From an uncultured Clostridia bacterium (GTDB lineage: Bacteria > Bacillota > Limnochordia > DTU080 > RSA5), in contig CAYRIY010000008.1 in NCBI GenBank assembly GCA_964424335.1, positions 1 to 61,577 on the forward strand: a stretch of 61,577 nucleotides of DNA, written 5' to 3'. Shown here in pieces: positions 40,816 through 45,754 of the stretch. Both the position numbers and the translations under genes were made by a program. Each line of letters begins with the position of its first letter. Within the stretch, counting starts at the first letter, position 1. The notes beneath the pieces are model-generated. The model was not told the origin of the DNA and made no database searches. It saw only the letters and a list, made by a program, of their open reading frames with translations.

Positions 40816-41277
40816 TTAATACCTCTTCTTGAGGACGCCTTCGAGTCTGCGTCCAAAAGCCGCGGCGTCGCTTTTCGAACTTAGGCTGGCAAAGTCTTGC
40901 ACCCAAGCGCCTTGACGCTCAAGGAGCGCCATCAGCCGCCTCTGGGCCTTACCGACGCCGAAGAGACCGCCCGAAACGAAGACCGCCGCTTGCTTGCCTT
41001 CCAATCGGCTGCAGCGCCGCACCGATGAATCGACATCTTCGGCAAAGCGCCCGCCAAACAGGCCGAGCACCGGGGAGCCGACGCAAATGAGGTCGTACGG
41101 CGCAGTTACGATAGTGTCCGAGCCCGTGCGGGCCTCCATGAGCTGCACGTCGACGGATGCTGCGCGCAAACCCTCGGCCACCGCCTGCGCGAGCTGGGTA
41201 ATCTTTGGAGTGCTGCTGTAGATGATCAACGCTCGCACAGCCGATCCATCGCCTCCGGTCTCTATAGCATTGATCAA
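40816..41277 (-). CDS. Flavodoxin-fold protein with a degenerate FMN loop
   Basis: ALIIYSS..LAQAVAEGL, YDLICVGSP, LEGKQAAVF; lacks the canonical SxTGNT loop. Start 41277 (overlapping the prs stop) or GTG 41238. Confidence 0.7.
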   Translation of the reverse strand: MINAIETGGDGSAVRALIIYSSTPKITQLAQAVAEGLRAASVDVQLMEARTGSDTIVTAPYDLICVGSPVLGLFGGRFAEDVDSSVRRCSRLEGKQAAVFVSGGLFGVGKAQRRLMALLERQGAWVQDFASLSSKSDAAAFGRRLEGVLKKRY

Positions 41278-42242
41278 AAGCCGAAACTGCTCTGCCCTGC
41301 TGGAACTTCAAAAAGCGTGCTCAACGATCCTCCCGAATGGATCCGGGAAATCGCCTCCGCAAAGAGCGGCGCAACCGATAATACCGTGATGATCGGATGC
41401 TGCTTGCCATAGGAGATCGGCAAGGAATTGGTGACGACAAGTTCCTTGAGGCCGACCGAGTGGAGGCGTTCGGCCGCGTTTCCGGACAAAACGGCGTGCG
41501 TTACGGACGCATACACCTCGCGGGCTCCGTGGCCGGTCACTGTCCGGACGGCCTGCGCCAGCGAGCCCCCCGAACTCACTTCGTCATCGACGATGAGCGC
41601 TCGCATCCCCTTTACGTCCCCGATCAAGTGGTCTGCGACCGCGTTTTCGTCATTGCCGACGCGCCTTTTGTCTATGATCGCCATCGGCGCCTTGAGAAGA
41701 TCCGCGTACGAGCGGGCCATCTTGGCACGTCCCGCATCGGGGGCGACGACGACGAGGTCATTCCATTCCCGCTTTCTAAAGTGTTCCGCCATGATCGGTA
41801 TCGCGGTCAAATGGTCGACCGGAATCCGAAAAAACCCTTGGATCTGTGCGGCGTGGAGGTCCATGGTCAGGATGCGGTTGGTGCCGGCCACTTCGAGCAC
41901 GTCAGCGATGAGCCGTGCGGTGATGGGAATGCGCGGCTGATCCTTTTTGTCTGAGCGCGCGTAAGGAAAATAAGGGACGACTGCCGTGATCCGCCGGATC
42001 GAAGCCCGCTTGAGGGCGTCGATCATGATCAGGAGCTCCATGAATCCGTCGTTTACCGGATGGCAAGACGGCTGAATGACGTAGACATCATCTTCTCGGA
42101 CGTTCTCGTTGATCTTGACGAACGTGTTGTCGTTGCTGAACTTGAAAATATCCGCAGCTCCCAGGTTTACGCCCAGGTGCCGACAGACCTCGCGGGCAAA
42201 CTCGGGGTGAGCGCGACCCGAAAAGACCTTGAGGTTGAACAC
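41274..42242 (-). CDS. prs: Ribose-phosphate pyrophosphokinase (divergent paralog)
   Basis: ENVRE.DV, MELLIMIDALKRAS, PYARSDKK, MDLHAAQIQGFF, VAPDAG, IDKRR; PRPP loop reads DDEVSSGGS. Confidence 0.92.
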   Translation of the reverse strand: MFNLKVFSGRAHPEFAREVCRHLGVNLGAADIFKFSNDNTFVKINENVREDDVYVIQPSCHPVNDGFMELLIMIDALKRASIRRITAVVPYFPYARSDKKDQPRIPITARLIADVLEVAGTNRILTMDLHAAQIQGFFRIPVDHLTAIPIMAEHFRKREWNDLVVVAPDAGRAKMARSYADLLKAPMAIIDKRRVGNDENAVADHLIGDVKGMRALIVDDEVSSGGSLAQAVRTVTGHGAREVYASVTHAVLSGNAAERLHSVGLKELVVTNSLPISYGKQHPIITVLSVAPLFAEAISRIHSGGSLSTLFEVPAGQSSFGF

Positions 42243-42270
42243 GGCACGGCCCCCTAGGTTTTACGTTCGC

Positions 42271-43575
42271 CTACCTGTTCGACCCGATCGCGCCGATTCC
42301 TTCCGTCCAGCCAGCTCTGCCATGGCGGGAAGCGGGTCCGCAATCTGGGGCATTGGCGCGCATGCGCAGCGCTTCTCCTTTCAAGAACCGCCCAAGTCTG
42401 CGAATCCCTTCCTCGATGTCTTCGTCGGACGCTTGACTGTAGGCCAAGCGGATCGTGTTCTTACCGCTGCCGTCGACGAAGGATGCTCCCCCGCTCACGT
42501 ACGCCACGCGCTCGGTCGCAACGGCCCTAGGAAGGAGCGCTTTGGCGTCCATCTCCTCCGGCAGCGTGACCCAGACAAAAAAGCCGCCCTCAGGGTAGGT
42601 CCACTCGACTTCATCCGGAAAGTGTTCGGCTAATGCCCTCAGCATCAAGTCTCGCTTCTTCCGGTAAACGTCGATGATCGATTTGACGTGCTTATCGATG
42701 AGCCCTCGTCGAGCGCACTCGAGAATGATGCGCTGACCAAATGAGTTGGAGCAAAGGTCGGCGCCCTGCTTTGAGATTGCAAGTTTTTGAATGACAGGCT
42801 CAGGTCCGACCACGTAACCGATGCGAAATCCAGGCAGGAACACCTTGGAGAAGGTGCCGAGGTAGAGCACGTTCTCGCCCGAATCGTACGTGCGGATGTG
42901 CCGCCTTGGCGCTCCGTCGAAACGAAGGTCGCCGTACGGGTTGTCCTCGATGACGCAAAAGCCGTACTCCCTGGCGAGCTCGGCCAGCCGTTCCCGACGA
43001 TCCTCGGACAGGGTCACCCCTGTCGGGTTGTGAAAGTTGGGAACGACGTAACAGAGCTTGACCGGGCCGCCTCCGACCGGACCCCCTTGGGCCAGCACGC
43101 GCTCGAGCTCGTCGACCCGGATGCCGTCGCTGTCCAAGGGTATCGGGGTAAAGCTTGGTTCGTATTGATTGAACGCGGAGATCCCGCCGATATACCCCGG
43201 CTTCTCGACGATGACCGTGTCACCAGGATCGATCGTCACCTTGCCTACGAGGTCGAGCGCTTGTTGGGAGCCGTTGGTCAGCAATACGTTTTCGGCGGTG
43301 CACTCGATCCCTTCGCCGCGGAGTCGCTGCGCCACGCTCTCGCGCAACTCGTAGAGCCCCTCGGTCGGCCCGTACTGGAGGCTGGAGGCTCCAAGGCGGG
43401 ATGCAACCTCGTGCGCCACCTCCGCAATTAGGGCGGTCGGAAACGTCTCCGGCGCCGGAAATCCCCCCGCAAATGAGATGATGTCGCCCCGCTCGGCGAG
43501 TTTGAACGCCTCGCGGATGTCGGAAGCTTTCATGCGCTCCGTTCTCTTGGAGAAAAGTCGCTGCCACGTTTCCAT
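42271..43575 (-). CDS. Class I PLP-dependent aminotransferase (LysN/ARO8-type), putatively alanine-forming
   Basis: ISFAGGFP, LQYGPTEG, TNGSQQALDL, PNFHNPTG, IEDNPY, GTFSK..PGFRIG; no HTH. ATG 43575 after AGGAG. Substrate is inferred only from the T-boxes. Confidence 0.9.
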   Translation of the reverse strand: METWQRLFSKRTERMKASDIREAFKLAERGDIISFAGGFPAPETFPTALIAEVAHEVASRLGASSLQYGPTEGLYELRESVAQRLRGEGIECTAENVLLTNGSQQALDLVGKVTIDPGDTVIVEKPGYIGGISAFNQYEPSFTPIPLDSDGIRVDELERVLAQGGPVGGGPVKLCYVVPNFHNPTGVTLSEDRRERLAELAREYGFCVIEDNPYGDLRFDGAPRRHIRTYDSGENVLYLGTFSKVFLPGFRIGYVVGPEPVIQKLAISKQGADLCSNSFGQRIILECARRGLIDKHVKSIIDVYRKKRDLMLRALAEHFPDEVEWTYPEGGFFVWVTLPEEMDAKALLPRAVATERVAYVSGGASFVDGSGKNTIRLAYSQASDEDIEEGIRRLGRFLKGEALRMRANAPDCGPASRHGRAGWTEGIGAIGSNR

Positions 43576-43602
43576 CGGTTTTCGGCTCCTAAAATGATAA
43601 TC

Positions 43603-43878
43603 AAAAAGGGCCCTCGTCTCGAAAAGCATGCGCCAGAGACGGGGCCCTTTTTACCCGCGGTACCACTCTGATTGCCGGTTGCTTGGCAACCGGCCACTCG
43701 TTAGGGGGCCGATAACGTGGCCCAATCCGGCCGGGTGTTTCGCCCGGCGGCTCGTACATGGCGGCTCGCTCGTTGCGTGGTGCGGCAAGACCCTTTCAGC
43801 CATCGTCCGAATTCGTTCAAGACGGGGGTCTCTCTCTGGACGCCGCTTTCGCAAGGCTTCTCCATCGTCATCGCCGTT
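43603..43878 (-). ncRNA. T-box riboswitch, second of a tandem pair; probable Ala specifier (GCC)
   Basis: GCGATGA...CGAGC GA motif, AGAGAGA bulge, GGCTGAAA loop, GCC-G just before the CCAT/ATGG helix (43763-43765), AGAGTGGTACCGCG (43656-43669), GGGCCCCGTCTC/GAGACGAGGGCCC-T5 terminator. Confidence 0.85.
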
Positions 43879-43964
43879 TGTCATGGTCCCGGCGCCAATG
43901 CCTCATGTCGCCAGGACCTTTGGTCGATCGATCATTTTTATGCGCTGCGCCAAACAGGTACGTC

Positions 43965-44268
43965 AAAACAAAAAAGCTCCCGTCCCCAAATGATTGGGGC
44001 GAGAGCAACGCTTCGCGGTACCACCCAACTTTGACCCGCCGTAAACCAGCAGGTCCTCAAAGGTCATCGTCGCGCATCACGACGATGCTCGGAGGTAACG
44101 GTCCTGGCCATGTGGTGGCCGCACCGGCCGAGGCTACTAAGGGATACTTTTCGCCTCGGCAGCTCAGAGGTGGCGTTCGCAAAAGGCTCCCCGATCGCCC
44201 TCCCACCGTCGGCGACTCGCTCCAAACTACGCGGGAGATTGCCTTGCTACTCTCCTCATCATTGCCGT
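43965..44268 (-). ncRNA. T-box riboswitch, first of a tandem pair; Ala specifier (GCC)
   Basis: GCAATGA/TGAGC GA motif, AGTA/GAA loop E, AGCGAG bulge, GGTGGGA loop, GAAC-GCC-A-CCTC specifier (44172-44174), GGGTGGTACCGCG (44014-44026), GCTCTCGCCCCAA/TTGGGGACGGGAGC-T6GT4 terminator. Confidence 0.9.
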
Positions 44269-44288
44269 TAATGATTGATATGCCATTC

Positions 44289-44318
44289 ACGTTAACATGG
44301 ACGTATGGTTCGTGTCAA
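44289..44318 (-). promoter_or_regulatory. SigA promoter for the tandem T-box leader; its -35 overlaps the argH stop codon
   Basis: Minus strand TTGACA-18 nt-TAACGT with TG extension, about 20 nt upstream of stem I. Confidence 0.6.
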
Positions 44319-45754
44319 CTACTGTTTTCGATTCCGGGAATCACGCGTTCACCCTGCATGGAGGTTGGGGGCGGAACCCGTCTCGTGGCAATGGCTTCCT
44401 TGGCCGCGGCGAGCTGTTCCAAAACCCGCTCGAGCGCGGTGCCTCCGACACAGTTTCTGGTCTTTAGCATCCCTTGCACACTCAATGCGCTCTCCAGGTC
44501 CTCGGCTACATCGAGGCCCAAATGCCGAAAGTCCTGCACGGAGAGGTCCTCGAGCGCAAGGCCCCTCTCGGCGCAGTGCCAAACGGCCTTTCCCACAAGT
44601 TCGTGAGCTTTGCGAAACGGAACGCCGCGCCTTGTGAGATAGTCGGCAAGGTCGGTCGCGTTGAGGTATCCGCCGCGGAGGGCCTCCGCCATGCGATCCT
44701 TTCGAATTCGGAGCGTCCTGACAGTCGGCGCAAGGATGAGAAGGGAGCGCTCGAGCGTATCGACCGAGTCAAAGAGCGCCTCCTTGTCCTCTTGCATATC
44801 CTTGTTGTAGGCAAGCGGCAAGCCCTTCATCGTCGTCAGCAGACCGATGAGGTTGCCAAACAGTCGACCGGTCTTTCCCCGCACAAGTTCAGGGACGTCG
44901 GGGTTTTTCTTTTGGGGCATCATGCTGCTTCCCGTGCTGTAGGCGTCGTCCAGCTCGACAAAGCCAAATTCGGATGTCGCCCAGAGCACGATCTCCTCTG
45001 AAAGCCGGCTCATGTGAACTCCGACGATTGCCGCCGCACCTAAAAACTCGAGCGCGAAGTCTCGATCTGAAACCGCGTCCATGCTGTTTTGAGAGAGTTT
45101 GGCAAATCCAAGCTCCCTCCTTACAAACTCTCGATCGATCGGGAAGGTGGTTCCCGCAATCGCTCCCGACCCCAGCGGGCAGACGTCAACTCGCTTGTAG
45201 CAGTCTCCAAAACGCTCCCGGTCACGCTCGAACATCTCTACGTACGCGAGGAGATGGTGCGCAAGGAGCACGGGTTGCGCGCGCTGCAGGTGCGTGTAAC
45301 CAGGCATCGCGATGCTCGGGTCTTGCTCTGCGAGTTCGATCAGAGCCGCCTCCACCCCGATCAGGGCGTCCTCGATCCGGCGCAGAGCGTCTTTCAAATA
45401 AAGGCGCGTGTCGAGCGCTACTTGATCGTTGCGGCTGCGCGCAGTGTGCAGCTTTCTACCGACGTCTCCGACGCGCTCGATCAGCAGCCGCTCCACGTTC
45501 ATGTGAATATCTTCGCTTGCGGTGGAGAGCTCCGCCCGCCCTTGCACGATCTCCTCGTGCACTTGGTCCAGCCCGCTGCAGATCAGTTCTGCTTCGTGGT
45601 CCTGGATGATCCCGCAGTGAGCCAGCATTCGGGCGTGCGCCTTGCTGCCTTGGATGTCGTACGGCAAAAGCCTGTAGTCAAATCCGATCGATGAGTGGAA
45701 ATCGTCGACCTGTTCGTCGGTGTCTTTGGTGAAACGACCGCCCCACATCTTCAC
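44315..45754 (-). CDS. argH: Argininosuccinate lyase
   Basis: MWGGRF, HTARSRNDQV, PGYTHLQRAQP, GSSMMPQKKNPD, YNKDMQEDK. Confidence 0.97.
   Translation of the reverse strand: MKMWGGRFTKDTDEQVDDFHSSIGFDYRLLPYDIQGSKAHARMLAHCGIIQDHEAELICSGLDQVHEEIVQGRAELSTASEDIHMNVERLLIERVGDVGRKLHTARSRNDQVALDTRLYLKDALRRIEDALIGVEAALIELAEQDPSIAMPGYTHLQRAQPVLLAHHLLAYVEMFERDRERFGDCYKRVDVCPLGSGAIAGTTFPIDREFVRRELGFAKLSQNSMDAVSDRDFALEFLGAAAIVGVHMSRLSEEIVLWATSEFGFVELDDAYSTGSSMMPQKKNPDVPELVRGKTGRLFGNLIGLLTTMKGLPLAYNKDMQEDKEALFDSVDTLERSLLILAPTVRTLRIRKDRMAEALRGGYLNATDLADYLTRRGVPFRKAHELVGKAVWHCAERGLALEDLSVQDFRHLGLDVAEDLESALSVQGMLKTRNCVGGTALERVLEQLAAAKEAIATRRVPPPTSMQGERVIPGIENSS

Follow-up and report, generated by a model that had tools for sequence, protein, structure and literature searches.

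Architecture of the tandem T-box leader

The window analysed here is a 61,577-nucleotide (nt) stretch of DNA from an uncultured Clostridia bacterium (contig CAYRIY010000008.1). On its minus strand two T-box riboswitches lie in series ahead of a gene for a pyridoxal phosphate (PLP)-dependent aminotransferase, and this study concerns the amino acid to which the two elements are set and the role of the enzyme behind them. The order on this strand is argH, the two T-boxes, the aminotransferase gene, prs, a gene for a flavodoxin-fold protein, a further T-box and ilvB-ilvN-ilvC; argH, argG and carB are found directly upstream of the tandem leader. For the ArgH protein, the best named matches share only 60% identity and come from assorted Bacillota. 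The window was scanned with Rfam (RF00230, gathering score 93), and positions 43300-44500 were then searched by a more permissive cmscan. The features of the locus are as follows.

43992..44271, minus strand: T-box 1 (upstream element); RF00230, 96.9 bits, model positions 1-219, above the gathering score of 93
43970..44006, minus strand: T-box 1 terminator; hairpin 44006-43976 followed by UUUUUU at 43975-43970; fold z-score -2.8 (71 nt) and -4.8 (104 nt)
43632..43880, minus strand: T-box 2 (gene-proximal element); RF00230, 45.6 bits, E-value 1.5e-8, full model 1-219, below the gathering score
43602..43653, minus strand: T-box 2 terminator; long GC-rich hairpin ending in UUUUU; -32.7 kcal/mol, z-score -3.3
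42271..43575, minus strand: PLP aminotransferase, 434 amino acids (aa); ATG at 43575, AGGAG at 43590-43586; PF00155, 139 bits
41274..42242, minus strand: prs (ribose-phosphate diphosphokinase); TIGR01251, 371 bits against a cut-off of 113; PRK01259, 384 against 297
40816..41277, minus strand: flavodoxin-fold protein of a divergent family, 153 aa; its start overlaps the prs stop
40696-40361, minus strand: T-box of the ilvB leader; RF00230, 65.8 bits; specifier CUC
44289..44318, minus strand: candidate promoter, found by eye; TTGACA at 44318-44313, 18 nt, TAACGT at 44294-44289 with TG just upstream

T-box 1 comprises Stem I with a K-turn, an AGAGUA motif, the specifier loop, Stem II, Stem IIA/B, Stem III and the T-box sequence. 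The 3' side of its specifier loop reads GAA-C-GCC-A and is followed by CCUC, which pairs with GAGG; the GCC triplet occupies 44174-44172. The UGGU bulge is at 44023-44020 (core sequence GGGUGGUACCGCG). In T-box 2 the loop reads GCGA-GCC-G, followed by CCAU that pairs with AUGG, with GCC at 43765-43763 and the UGGU bulge at 43665-43662 (core sequence GAGUGGUACCGCG). In both elements the 5' arm of the terminator is the 3' arm of the antiterminator, as seen in the cmscan alignment and the RNA folds. The terminators were taken from these folds; the promoter/terminator scan listed neither of them, their loops and stems falling outside its rules. The features that define RF00230 were found: Stem I with K-turn and specifier loop, a UGGN antiterminator opposed to a terminator, and a cognate tRNA. 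A preliminary description of this DNA had called the genes as the annotation of the window does, next to the ilv operon, and had described two complete serial T-boxes, each with antiterminator and terminator. The RF00230 matches and the folds agree with it, and the spans it gave (43965-44268 and 43603-43878) correspond to the Rfam elements together with their terminators. The pair goes far beyond a chance match: 19 related loci also carry a tandem with this triplet. In several families the upstream alanine element carries the variant core GGGUGGUAACACG instead of GGGUGGUACCGCG (L044:1085-1135, L036:2975-3040, L074:2094).

T-box 2 is the weaker of the two. It has GAAG at the place where AGUA is usual, and a hairpin of ~21 nt (~43824-43800) is inserted in the distal loop of its Stem I that is absent from the four aligned orthologous downstream elements. 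Its low score, the missing AGUA and the insertion make its activity in this genome less sure. One could suppose that only T-box 1 works here and that T-box 2, damaged by the insertion, is a constitutive terminator, a leaky spacer or an element that an internal promoter bypasses. Its 45.6 bits compare with 56-94 bits for most orthologous downstream elements, the hairpin is unique to the window, and a TTGACG with an A/T-rich hexamer can be seen by eye between the elements. However, specifier, UGGU, antiterminator and terminator are all intact, the promoter scan is empty between the elements at its threshold, and the text of a review describes lineage-specific T-box insertions as tolerated (PMC7583486). 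We regard a loss of T-box 2 function as distinctly unlikely. A score below 93 bits is also common in this genome, where it applies to 12 of the 16 other T-box hits, including nine leaders of aminoacyl-tRNA synthetase genes.

Transcription of the operon could begin at either of two places. The -35 hexamer of the candidate promoter overlaps the argH stop codon; the consensus scan listed no promoter before T-box 1, and the candidate is therefore weak. In the promoter/terminator scan the stretch from argH to T-box 1 holds no terminator-like site, so transcription of argH may run on into the leader. Contigs from RNA libraries (compost runs X2, X4 and X5, which are one sample, and soil run X6) cover the leader and all three genes, and one contig of 536 nt spans the T-box 1 terminator. 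Ends, strand and level cannot be read from these contigs and DNA carry-over is possible; they give a hint of presence only.

Specifier codon and cognate tRNA

Several overlapping triplets can be read in the window leaders, since CGCCA followed by C or U also offers CGC, CCA and CAC or CAU. The register was therefore calibrated on other leaders of the genome. The parsing rule takes the triplet separated on its 3' side from the closing helix by a single base and was applied by means of 10 cmscan alignments and a simple parser over 13 leaders. Among the 16 other leaders, specifiers were read for all but those of serS, glyQ and a cysE-like gene, and each of the 13 gave the expected codon. These are the synthetase leaders of thrS (ACC), trpS (UGG), tyrS (UAC), leuS (CUC), valS (GUC), argS (CGG), metS (AUG), pheS (UUC) and ileS (AUC), and the biosynthetic leaders of leuA (CUC), ilvB (CUC), a citramalate synthase gene (AUC) and a second acetolactate synthase gene (GUC). 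In the same register both window elements read GCC. The tyrS (L006) and leuS (L008) leaders have C after the specifier and not the usual purine; C in this position (GCC-C) is also seen in many downstream alanine elements.

A tRNA-Ala(GGC) gene is present on contig C68 of the genome; the tRNA has A73, and its CCA end is part of the gene. The draft yields only 30 tRNAs. ARAGORN additionally reported a 79-nt 'tRNA-Ala(CGC)' at C99:723-801, without CCA end or typical acceptor stem, and a 94-nt 'tRNA-His(AUG)' at C48:9075-9168; both calls look false or unusual.

The parser was then run on 44 leaders, 42 from 23 related loci and the two of the window. It parsed 30 of them correctly (GCC in 29, GCU in the upstream element of L036). 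The other 14 comprised 11 leaders with other triplets, two without a parse and T-box 2 of the window, for which the parser landed on an incorrect position that reads GCC by coincidence. By eye, GCC was seen in all 14, on the 5' side of the helix at a distance of one or two bases, and most of the parser failures are due to runs of C. The leaders of L047 and L048, also read by eye, have GCC too. In total, 46 elements, including the two of the window, carry GCC (45) or GCU (1). The neighbouring bases vary over the same set: C, A, U or G precedes the triplet and A, G, C or U follows it. In an alignment of five downstream elements (the window and four orthologues) GCC is invariant, and the helix below the specifier loop covaries (GAGG/CCUC, GGGG/CCCC, CAGG/CCUG, GAAG/CUUC and GGAA/UUCC).

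These data bear on the possibility that the specifier is a codon overlapping GCC (CGC for Arg, CCA for Pro, CAC or CAU for His) and that the operon answers to the corresponding amino acid. Both window leaders allow such readings, argH, argG and carB directly upstream would suit arginine, and phosphoribosyl pyrophosphate (PRPP), the product expected of prs, is a histidine precursor according to established pathway knowledge. However, only GCC (once GCU) is constant in 46 elements while the flanking bases vary, which excludes the Arg, Pro and His readings, and the register gives the right codon in all 13 controls. For argS, the leader in this genome has CGG as its specifier. Bacterial tRNA-His has C73 as its discriminator base, whereas UGGU implies A73, and related operons mostly lack prs; the His specifier suggested by prs was ruled out on these two grounds. 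We consider a specifier other than alanine highly improbable.

The preliminary description had read GCC in both elements and CUC in the neighbouring ilvB leader by the same register, and had held that UGGU fits A73; each of these readings is borne out by the calibration and by the tRNA-Ala(GGC) of the genome. It had also suggested looking for GCN in orthologous leaders, which the 45 GCC and one GCU provide, and had named a CGC (Arg) specifier as the result that would speak against alanine; as the base before GCC varies, this reading fails.

It is very likely that the leader acts by serial antitermination dependent on tRNA-Ala(GGC), the dependence on the tRNA itself being deduced from the sequence. 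Transcription would start upstream or read through from argH. With alanine plentiful, tRNA-Ala would be charged and transcription would end at one of the two terminators. Uncharged tRNA-Ala would pair with the GCC specifier through its GGC anticodon and with the UGGU bulge through its free ACCA end, and this pairing would stabilise each antiterminator in turn. Because two independent tRNA-dependent read-through events would be needed, the arrangement should give a tight off state and a steep response.

Conservation of the leader and its operon

Homologues of the aminotransferase (35-70% identity) are present in 28 of 60 related genomes of the class, and 29 loci were scanned. T-boxes were found upstream of the gene in 25 of these (23 orthologous, two from a sister branch). 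The T-boxes are tandem in 19 loci and single in six (L029, L030, L040 and L050, and with weaker matches L047 and L048). No T-box was found in the remaining four loci: in two the contig ends at the gene (L033, L045), and the other two hold a paralogue-type or distant homologue (L049, L051). In a tree of leader DNA, calculated without L032, the 19 downstream elements and three single ones form one clade (SH-like approximate likelihood ratio test (SH-aLRT) 98), and the 19 upstream elements with one single element form another (SH-aLRT 94). Neither clade includes any of the nine leaders of other genes. The separation of upstream and downstream elements indicates that the duplication predates the sampled families, and the tandem arrangement is accordingly old. 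In two distant families each element keeps its own terminator. Inspection by eye shows AGUA in the specifier loop of most upstream elements, and GAAG in the downstream ones.

A wider set of 80 distant homologues, which share 42-52% identity and stem from Chloroflexota, Acidobacteriota, Tissierellia, archaea and others, gave no extra support, as the T-box core motif occurs upstream in only three of the 80 and a flavodoxin-fold gene is adjacent in one of 84 loci searched. The distant homologues with either feature all fall inside the T-box clade of the protein tree described below.

Alanine T-boxes appear to be confined to this operon. None of the 18 T-box hits of the genome lies before alaS, which is on another contig with a short intergenic region ahead of it. 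In the relatives G001 and G002, of the same family, 29 of 32 T-box hits were parsed, and the only Ala specifiers were the two pairs before the aminotransferase gene; an apparent GCA comes from a cysE leader in which the register was shifted by one base (UGC, with UGGA). In G019 and G028, class members without the aminotransferase gene, 18 of 19 leaders were parsed and an Ala codon was seen in none. Across the four relatives surveyed, the parsed leaders of other genes thus contain no Ala specifier. In the present genome, two genes for acetolactate synthase large subunits stand behind different specifiers, the ilvB of the window behind CUC (Leu) and a second one behind GUC (Val; C6:46601-46875, L003). 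A citramalate synthase gene (TIGR00977, 633 bits) follows an AUC (Ile) T-box (C25:8946-9205, L002), which suggests a citramalate route to isoleucine that is sensed via tRNA-Ile.

Next, the other genes of the operon were compared. A flavodoxin-fold gene is found downstream of the aminotransferase gene in 18 of 26 assessable loci, with a gap of -4 to 97 nt (16 loci measured). It is absent in the other eight, where a DUF212 gene, mobA/mobB or the ilvB leader follows directly; the DUF212 (divergent PAP2) gene behind the T-box aminotransferase is a feature of one family (L034:2782-3294, L036:844-1290). In the present genome the flavodoxin-fold gene is single copy. Its predicted structure (predicted local distance difference test score (pLDDT) 86.7) matches Desulfovibrio flavodoxins in Foldseek with TM 0.72-0.75 at ~21% identity, and an atlas places the protein with flavodoxin-like clusters. 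Flavodoxin family models score below their cut-offs (PF00258 21.3 bits against 25, TIGR01753 35.1 against 123). The phosphate loop that binds flavin mononucleotide (FMN) in flavodoxins has the motif T/S-x-T-G-x-T, and by eye this motif is not conserved among 14 orthologues. The predicted model places the protein within the flavodoxin fold, with family scores and FMN loop outside the flavodoxins proper.

The gene prs stands between the aminotransferase and flavodoxin-fold genes only in the window and in L025 (one of the 29 related loci), and a second prs is present elsewhere in the genome (contig C21). Judging from this distribution, prs is a lineage-specific insertion into the operon and the flavodoxin-fold gene is the conserved partner of the aminotransferase. 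The operon of aminotransferase, prs and flavodoxin genes given in the preliminary description is present in the window as stated; it needs correction in that prs is not conserved within the regulon.

The aminotransferase and comparison with known systems

The enzyme is a class I/II PLP aminotransferase with an Aminotran_1_2 domain and belongs to the KAT-II/LysN/ARO8 subgroup. No NCBIfam equivalog scored above its cut-off, and the curated alanine and valine-pyruvate models remained far below theirs (PRK08363 99.5 bits against 534, PRK09440.1-5 114.7 against 402). It is not a MocR/GabR-type regulator: PdxR/MocR matches start at about profile position 90 and stay below cut-off, and there is no extra N-terminal or helix-turn-helix domain. 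The best solved relatives are PH0207 of Pyrococcus horikoshii, a multiple-substrate aminotransferase, LysN, a Thermotoga protein and the alanine:glyoxylate transaminase of Thermococcus litoralis. Residues K244, D211, N183, Y68, R376 and R21 are invariant in 18 orthologues and align with LysN; we take them to be catalytic or substrate residues, including the PLP lysine and the arginine for the substrate carboxylate.

In the protein tree, one clade (SH-aLRT 93) unites 22 T-box-linked proteins with that of L033, a locus whose upstream sequence is missing, and L047, L048 and L050 form a small second clade. A separate clade (SH-aLRT 98) holds 17 homologues without T-box, including the paralogue of the genome itself on contig C5. 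Comparison of 24 proteins of the T-box clade with 73 others revealed signature residues. Position 24 is Phe in the T-box clade and Leu in 73 of 73 others; position 39, in a GGxP motif, is Phe compared to Leu in 60 of 73; and position 332 is Phe compared to Leu or Met in 71 of 73. The clade has Gly at position 280, where the others have Asn, Thr or Ser. The leucine of the GG-Leu-Pro motif in human KAT II presumably lines the substrate pocket; if so, the Phe residues of the T-box clade would narrow the pocket.

Taken together, we propose that two serial T-boxes specific for tRNA-Ala(GGC) control an aminotransferase that most likely turns pyruvate into L-alanine (probability about 0.72). Both switches ahead of the gene are set to alanine, which makes an alanine-forming enzyme probable, and the clade-specific residues are consistent with this reaction. 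Glutamate is the most probable amino donor and valine a less probable one; the preliminary description, which had likewise proposed an alanine-forming enzyme, had named these two donors.

Alternatively, the leaders might sense tRNA-Ala while the enzyme has another main reaction, be it broad-substrate or directed to 2-aminoadipate or aromatic substrates, or while the flavodoxin-fold protein is the real target. The closest solved relatives (a KAT-II homologue, a multiple-substrate aminotransferase and LysN) would fit such an enzyme, as would the scores of the curated alanine-transaminase models given above, and the flavodoxin-fold gene is co-conserved. On the other hand, T-box control tracks the end product of the controlled gene in 13 of 13 cases in this genome, and inducing a consumer of alanine during alanine shortage would presumably be harmful. 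As eight of the 26 assessable loci keep T-box and transaminase without a flavodoxin-fold gene, the transaminase is the constant target. We consider this alternative rather unlikely, and somewhat less so than a defect of T-box 2.

Several points weigh against alanine formation under tandem T-box control. T-box 2 scores below the Rfam gathering score, lacks AGUA and has a window-specific insertion in Stem I. Among characterised homologues, the closest use kynurenine, 2-aminoadipate or many different substrates. Arg21 of the window enzyme aligns with LysN Arg23 and is kept; given the role of LysN Arg23, the enzyme is therefore not obviously specialised away from dicarboxylates. The genome encodes alanine dehydrogenase, an alternative route to alanine. 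No other class I enzyme resembling aspartate or alanine aminotransferase (AspAT/AlaAT-like) was found in this genome, but 49 of 61 genomes of the class hold one, including the three nearest relatives, G001-G003, which also have the T-box enzyme; none of these matches is above a curated cut-off. A complementary distribution of the two enzymes was not seen over the 61 genomes. Because of the dehydrogenase and the AspAT/AlaAT-like enzymes, the T-box enzyme need not be the sole route to alanine. A link of the flavodoxin-fold gene and prs to alanine starvation is unexplained, and the RNA-library contigs over the leader and operon are unable to show attenuation.

A more far-reaching view, which we regard as doubtful, is that the aminotransferase and its flavodoxin-fold neighbour form a dedicated, previously unrecognised module for alanine synthesis, the sole tRNA-Ala-sensing target in this deep Bacillota class. 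Phe at 24, 39 and 332 would then narrow the pocket for pyruvate and alanine, and the flavodoxin-fold protein would be required, for example by coupling pyruvate supply or cofactor state. If true, this would be a new family of bacterial alanine transaminases.

For alanine formation under control of the tandem T-boxes, the significance lies in the kind of evidence. In most bacteria alanine synthesis is spread over redundant transaminases and is difficult to assign, and aminotransferases of this subgroup usually carry homology-based names (2-aminoadipate, aromatic or kynurenine transaminase). A conserved pair of Ala T-boxes gives independent, regulation-based evidence on the in vivo role of one clade, which has testable signature residues and is of value for annotating an orphan group of aminotransferases.

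One side observation concerns another frame of the same genome with aminotransferase similarity. At C1:6228-7751 (L054), a single frame contains an AroH-type chorismate mutase (residues 6-120) and HisC (137-493); it is either a fusion or two adjacent in-frame genes.

Among enzymes of known structure, PH0207 (1x0m, 3aov) and the Thermococcus multiple-substrate aminotransferase (1wst) are the best matches (E-value ~1e-117 over the full length). Both are archaeal and have broad or kynurenine-type activity. They share fold and catalytic residues with the window enzyme, but differ in carrying Leu at the positions of Phe24 and Phe39 of the T-box clade. LysN of Thermus thermophilus, the 2-aminoadipate aminotransferase of the aminoadipate pathway of lysine synthesis (2egy), is in the same subgroup (E-value 1.6e-89), whereas the regulation of the window enzyme points to alanine. 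The alanine:glyoxylate transaminase of T. litoralis (2zc0; E-value 2e-80) also belongs to this subgroup and is more distant than PH0207. It differs in physiological direction and partner substrate, is archaeal and has no T-box control. Its membership shows that alanine and pyruvate can serve as substrates in this structural family. In E. coli AlaA, AlaC and AvtA and in B. subtilis AlaT, pyruvate and an amino donor yield alanine; these enzymes belong to other class I subgroups. The reaction proposed here is alike, and the window enzyme may work like them without being a member of their groups. For the flavodoxin-fold protein the closest comparison is with the short-chain flavodoxins of Desulfovibrio vulgaris, which have a similar predicted fold, whereas the window protein has ~21% identity and scores below family cut-offs.

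The Ala T-boxes before alaS in Bacillota are of the same riboswitch class, are set to the same amino acid and sense it in the same way, by anticodon-specifier and NCCA-UGGN pairing. The commonest Ala specifier given in the surveys is GCU (Wels 2008, PMC2494555; TBDB paper, PMC7778990), and GCC is used here. The main text of a compilation that lists tandem T-boxes before ilv and other operons (PMC12452182) does not mention alanine specificity with an aminotransferase target; its supplementary tables may list it. The article texts searched likewise describe no Ala T-box ahead of an aminotransferase gene, with supplementary tables lying outside the search. Tandem T-boxes of ilv, trp and other operons share the plan of two complete attenuators, one after the other, ahead of a biosynthetic gene. 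Their mode of action was described as unknown in the text of a 2020 review (PMC7583486), and the present locus adds a clean case of ancient duplication. Compared to the alaS leaders, the controlled gene is an aminotransferase and the element is duplicated in series, so that this lineage would sense the charging of tRNA-Ala at a biosynthetic gene and not at alaS.

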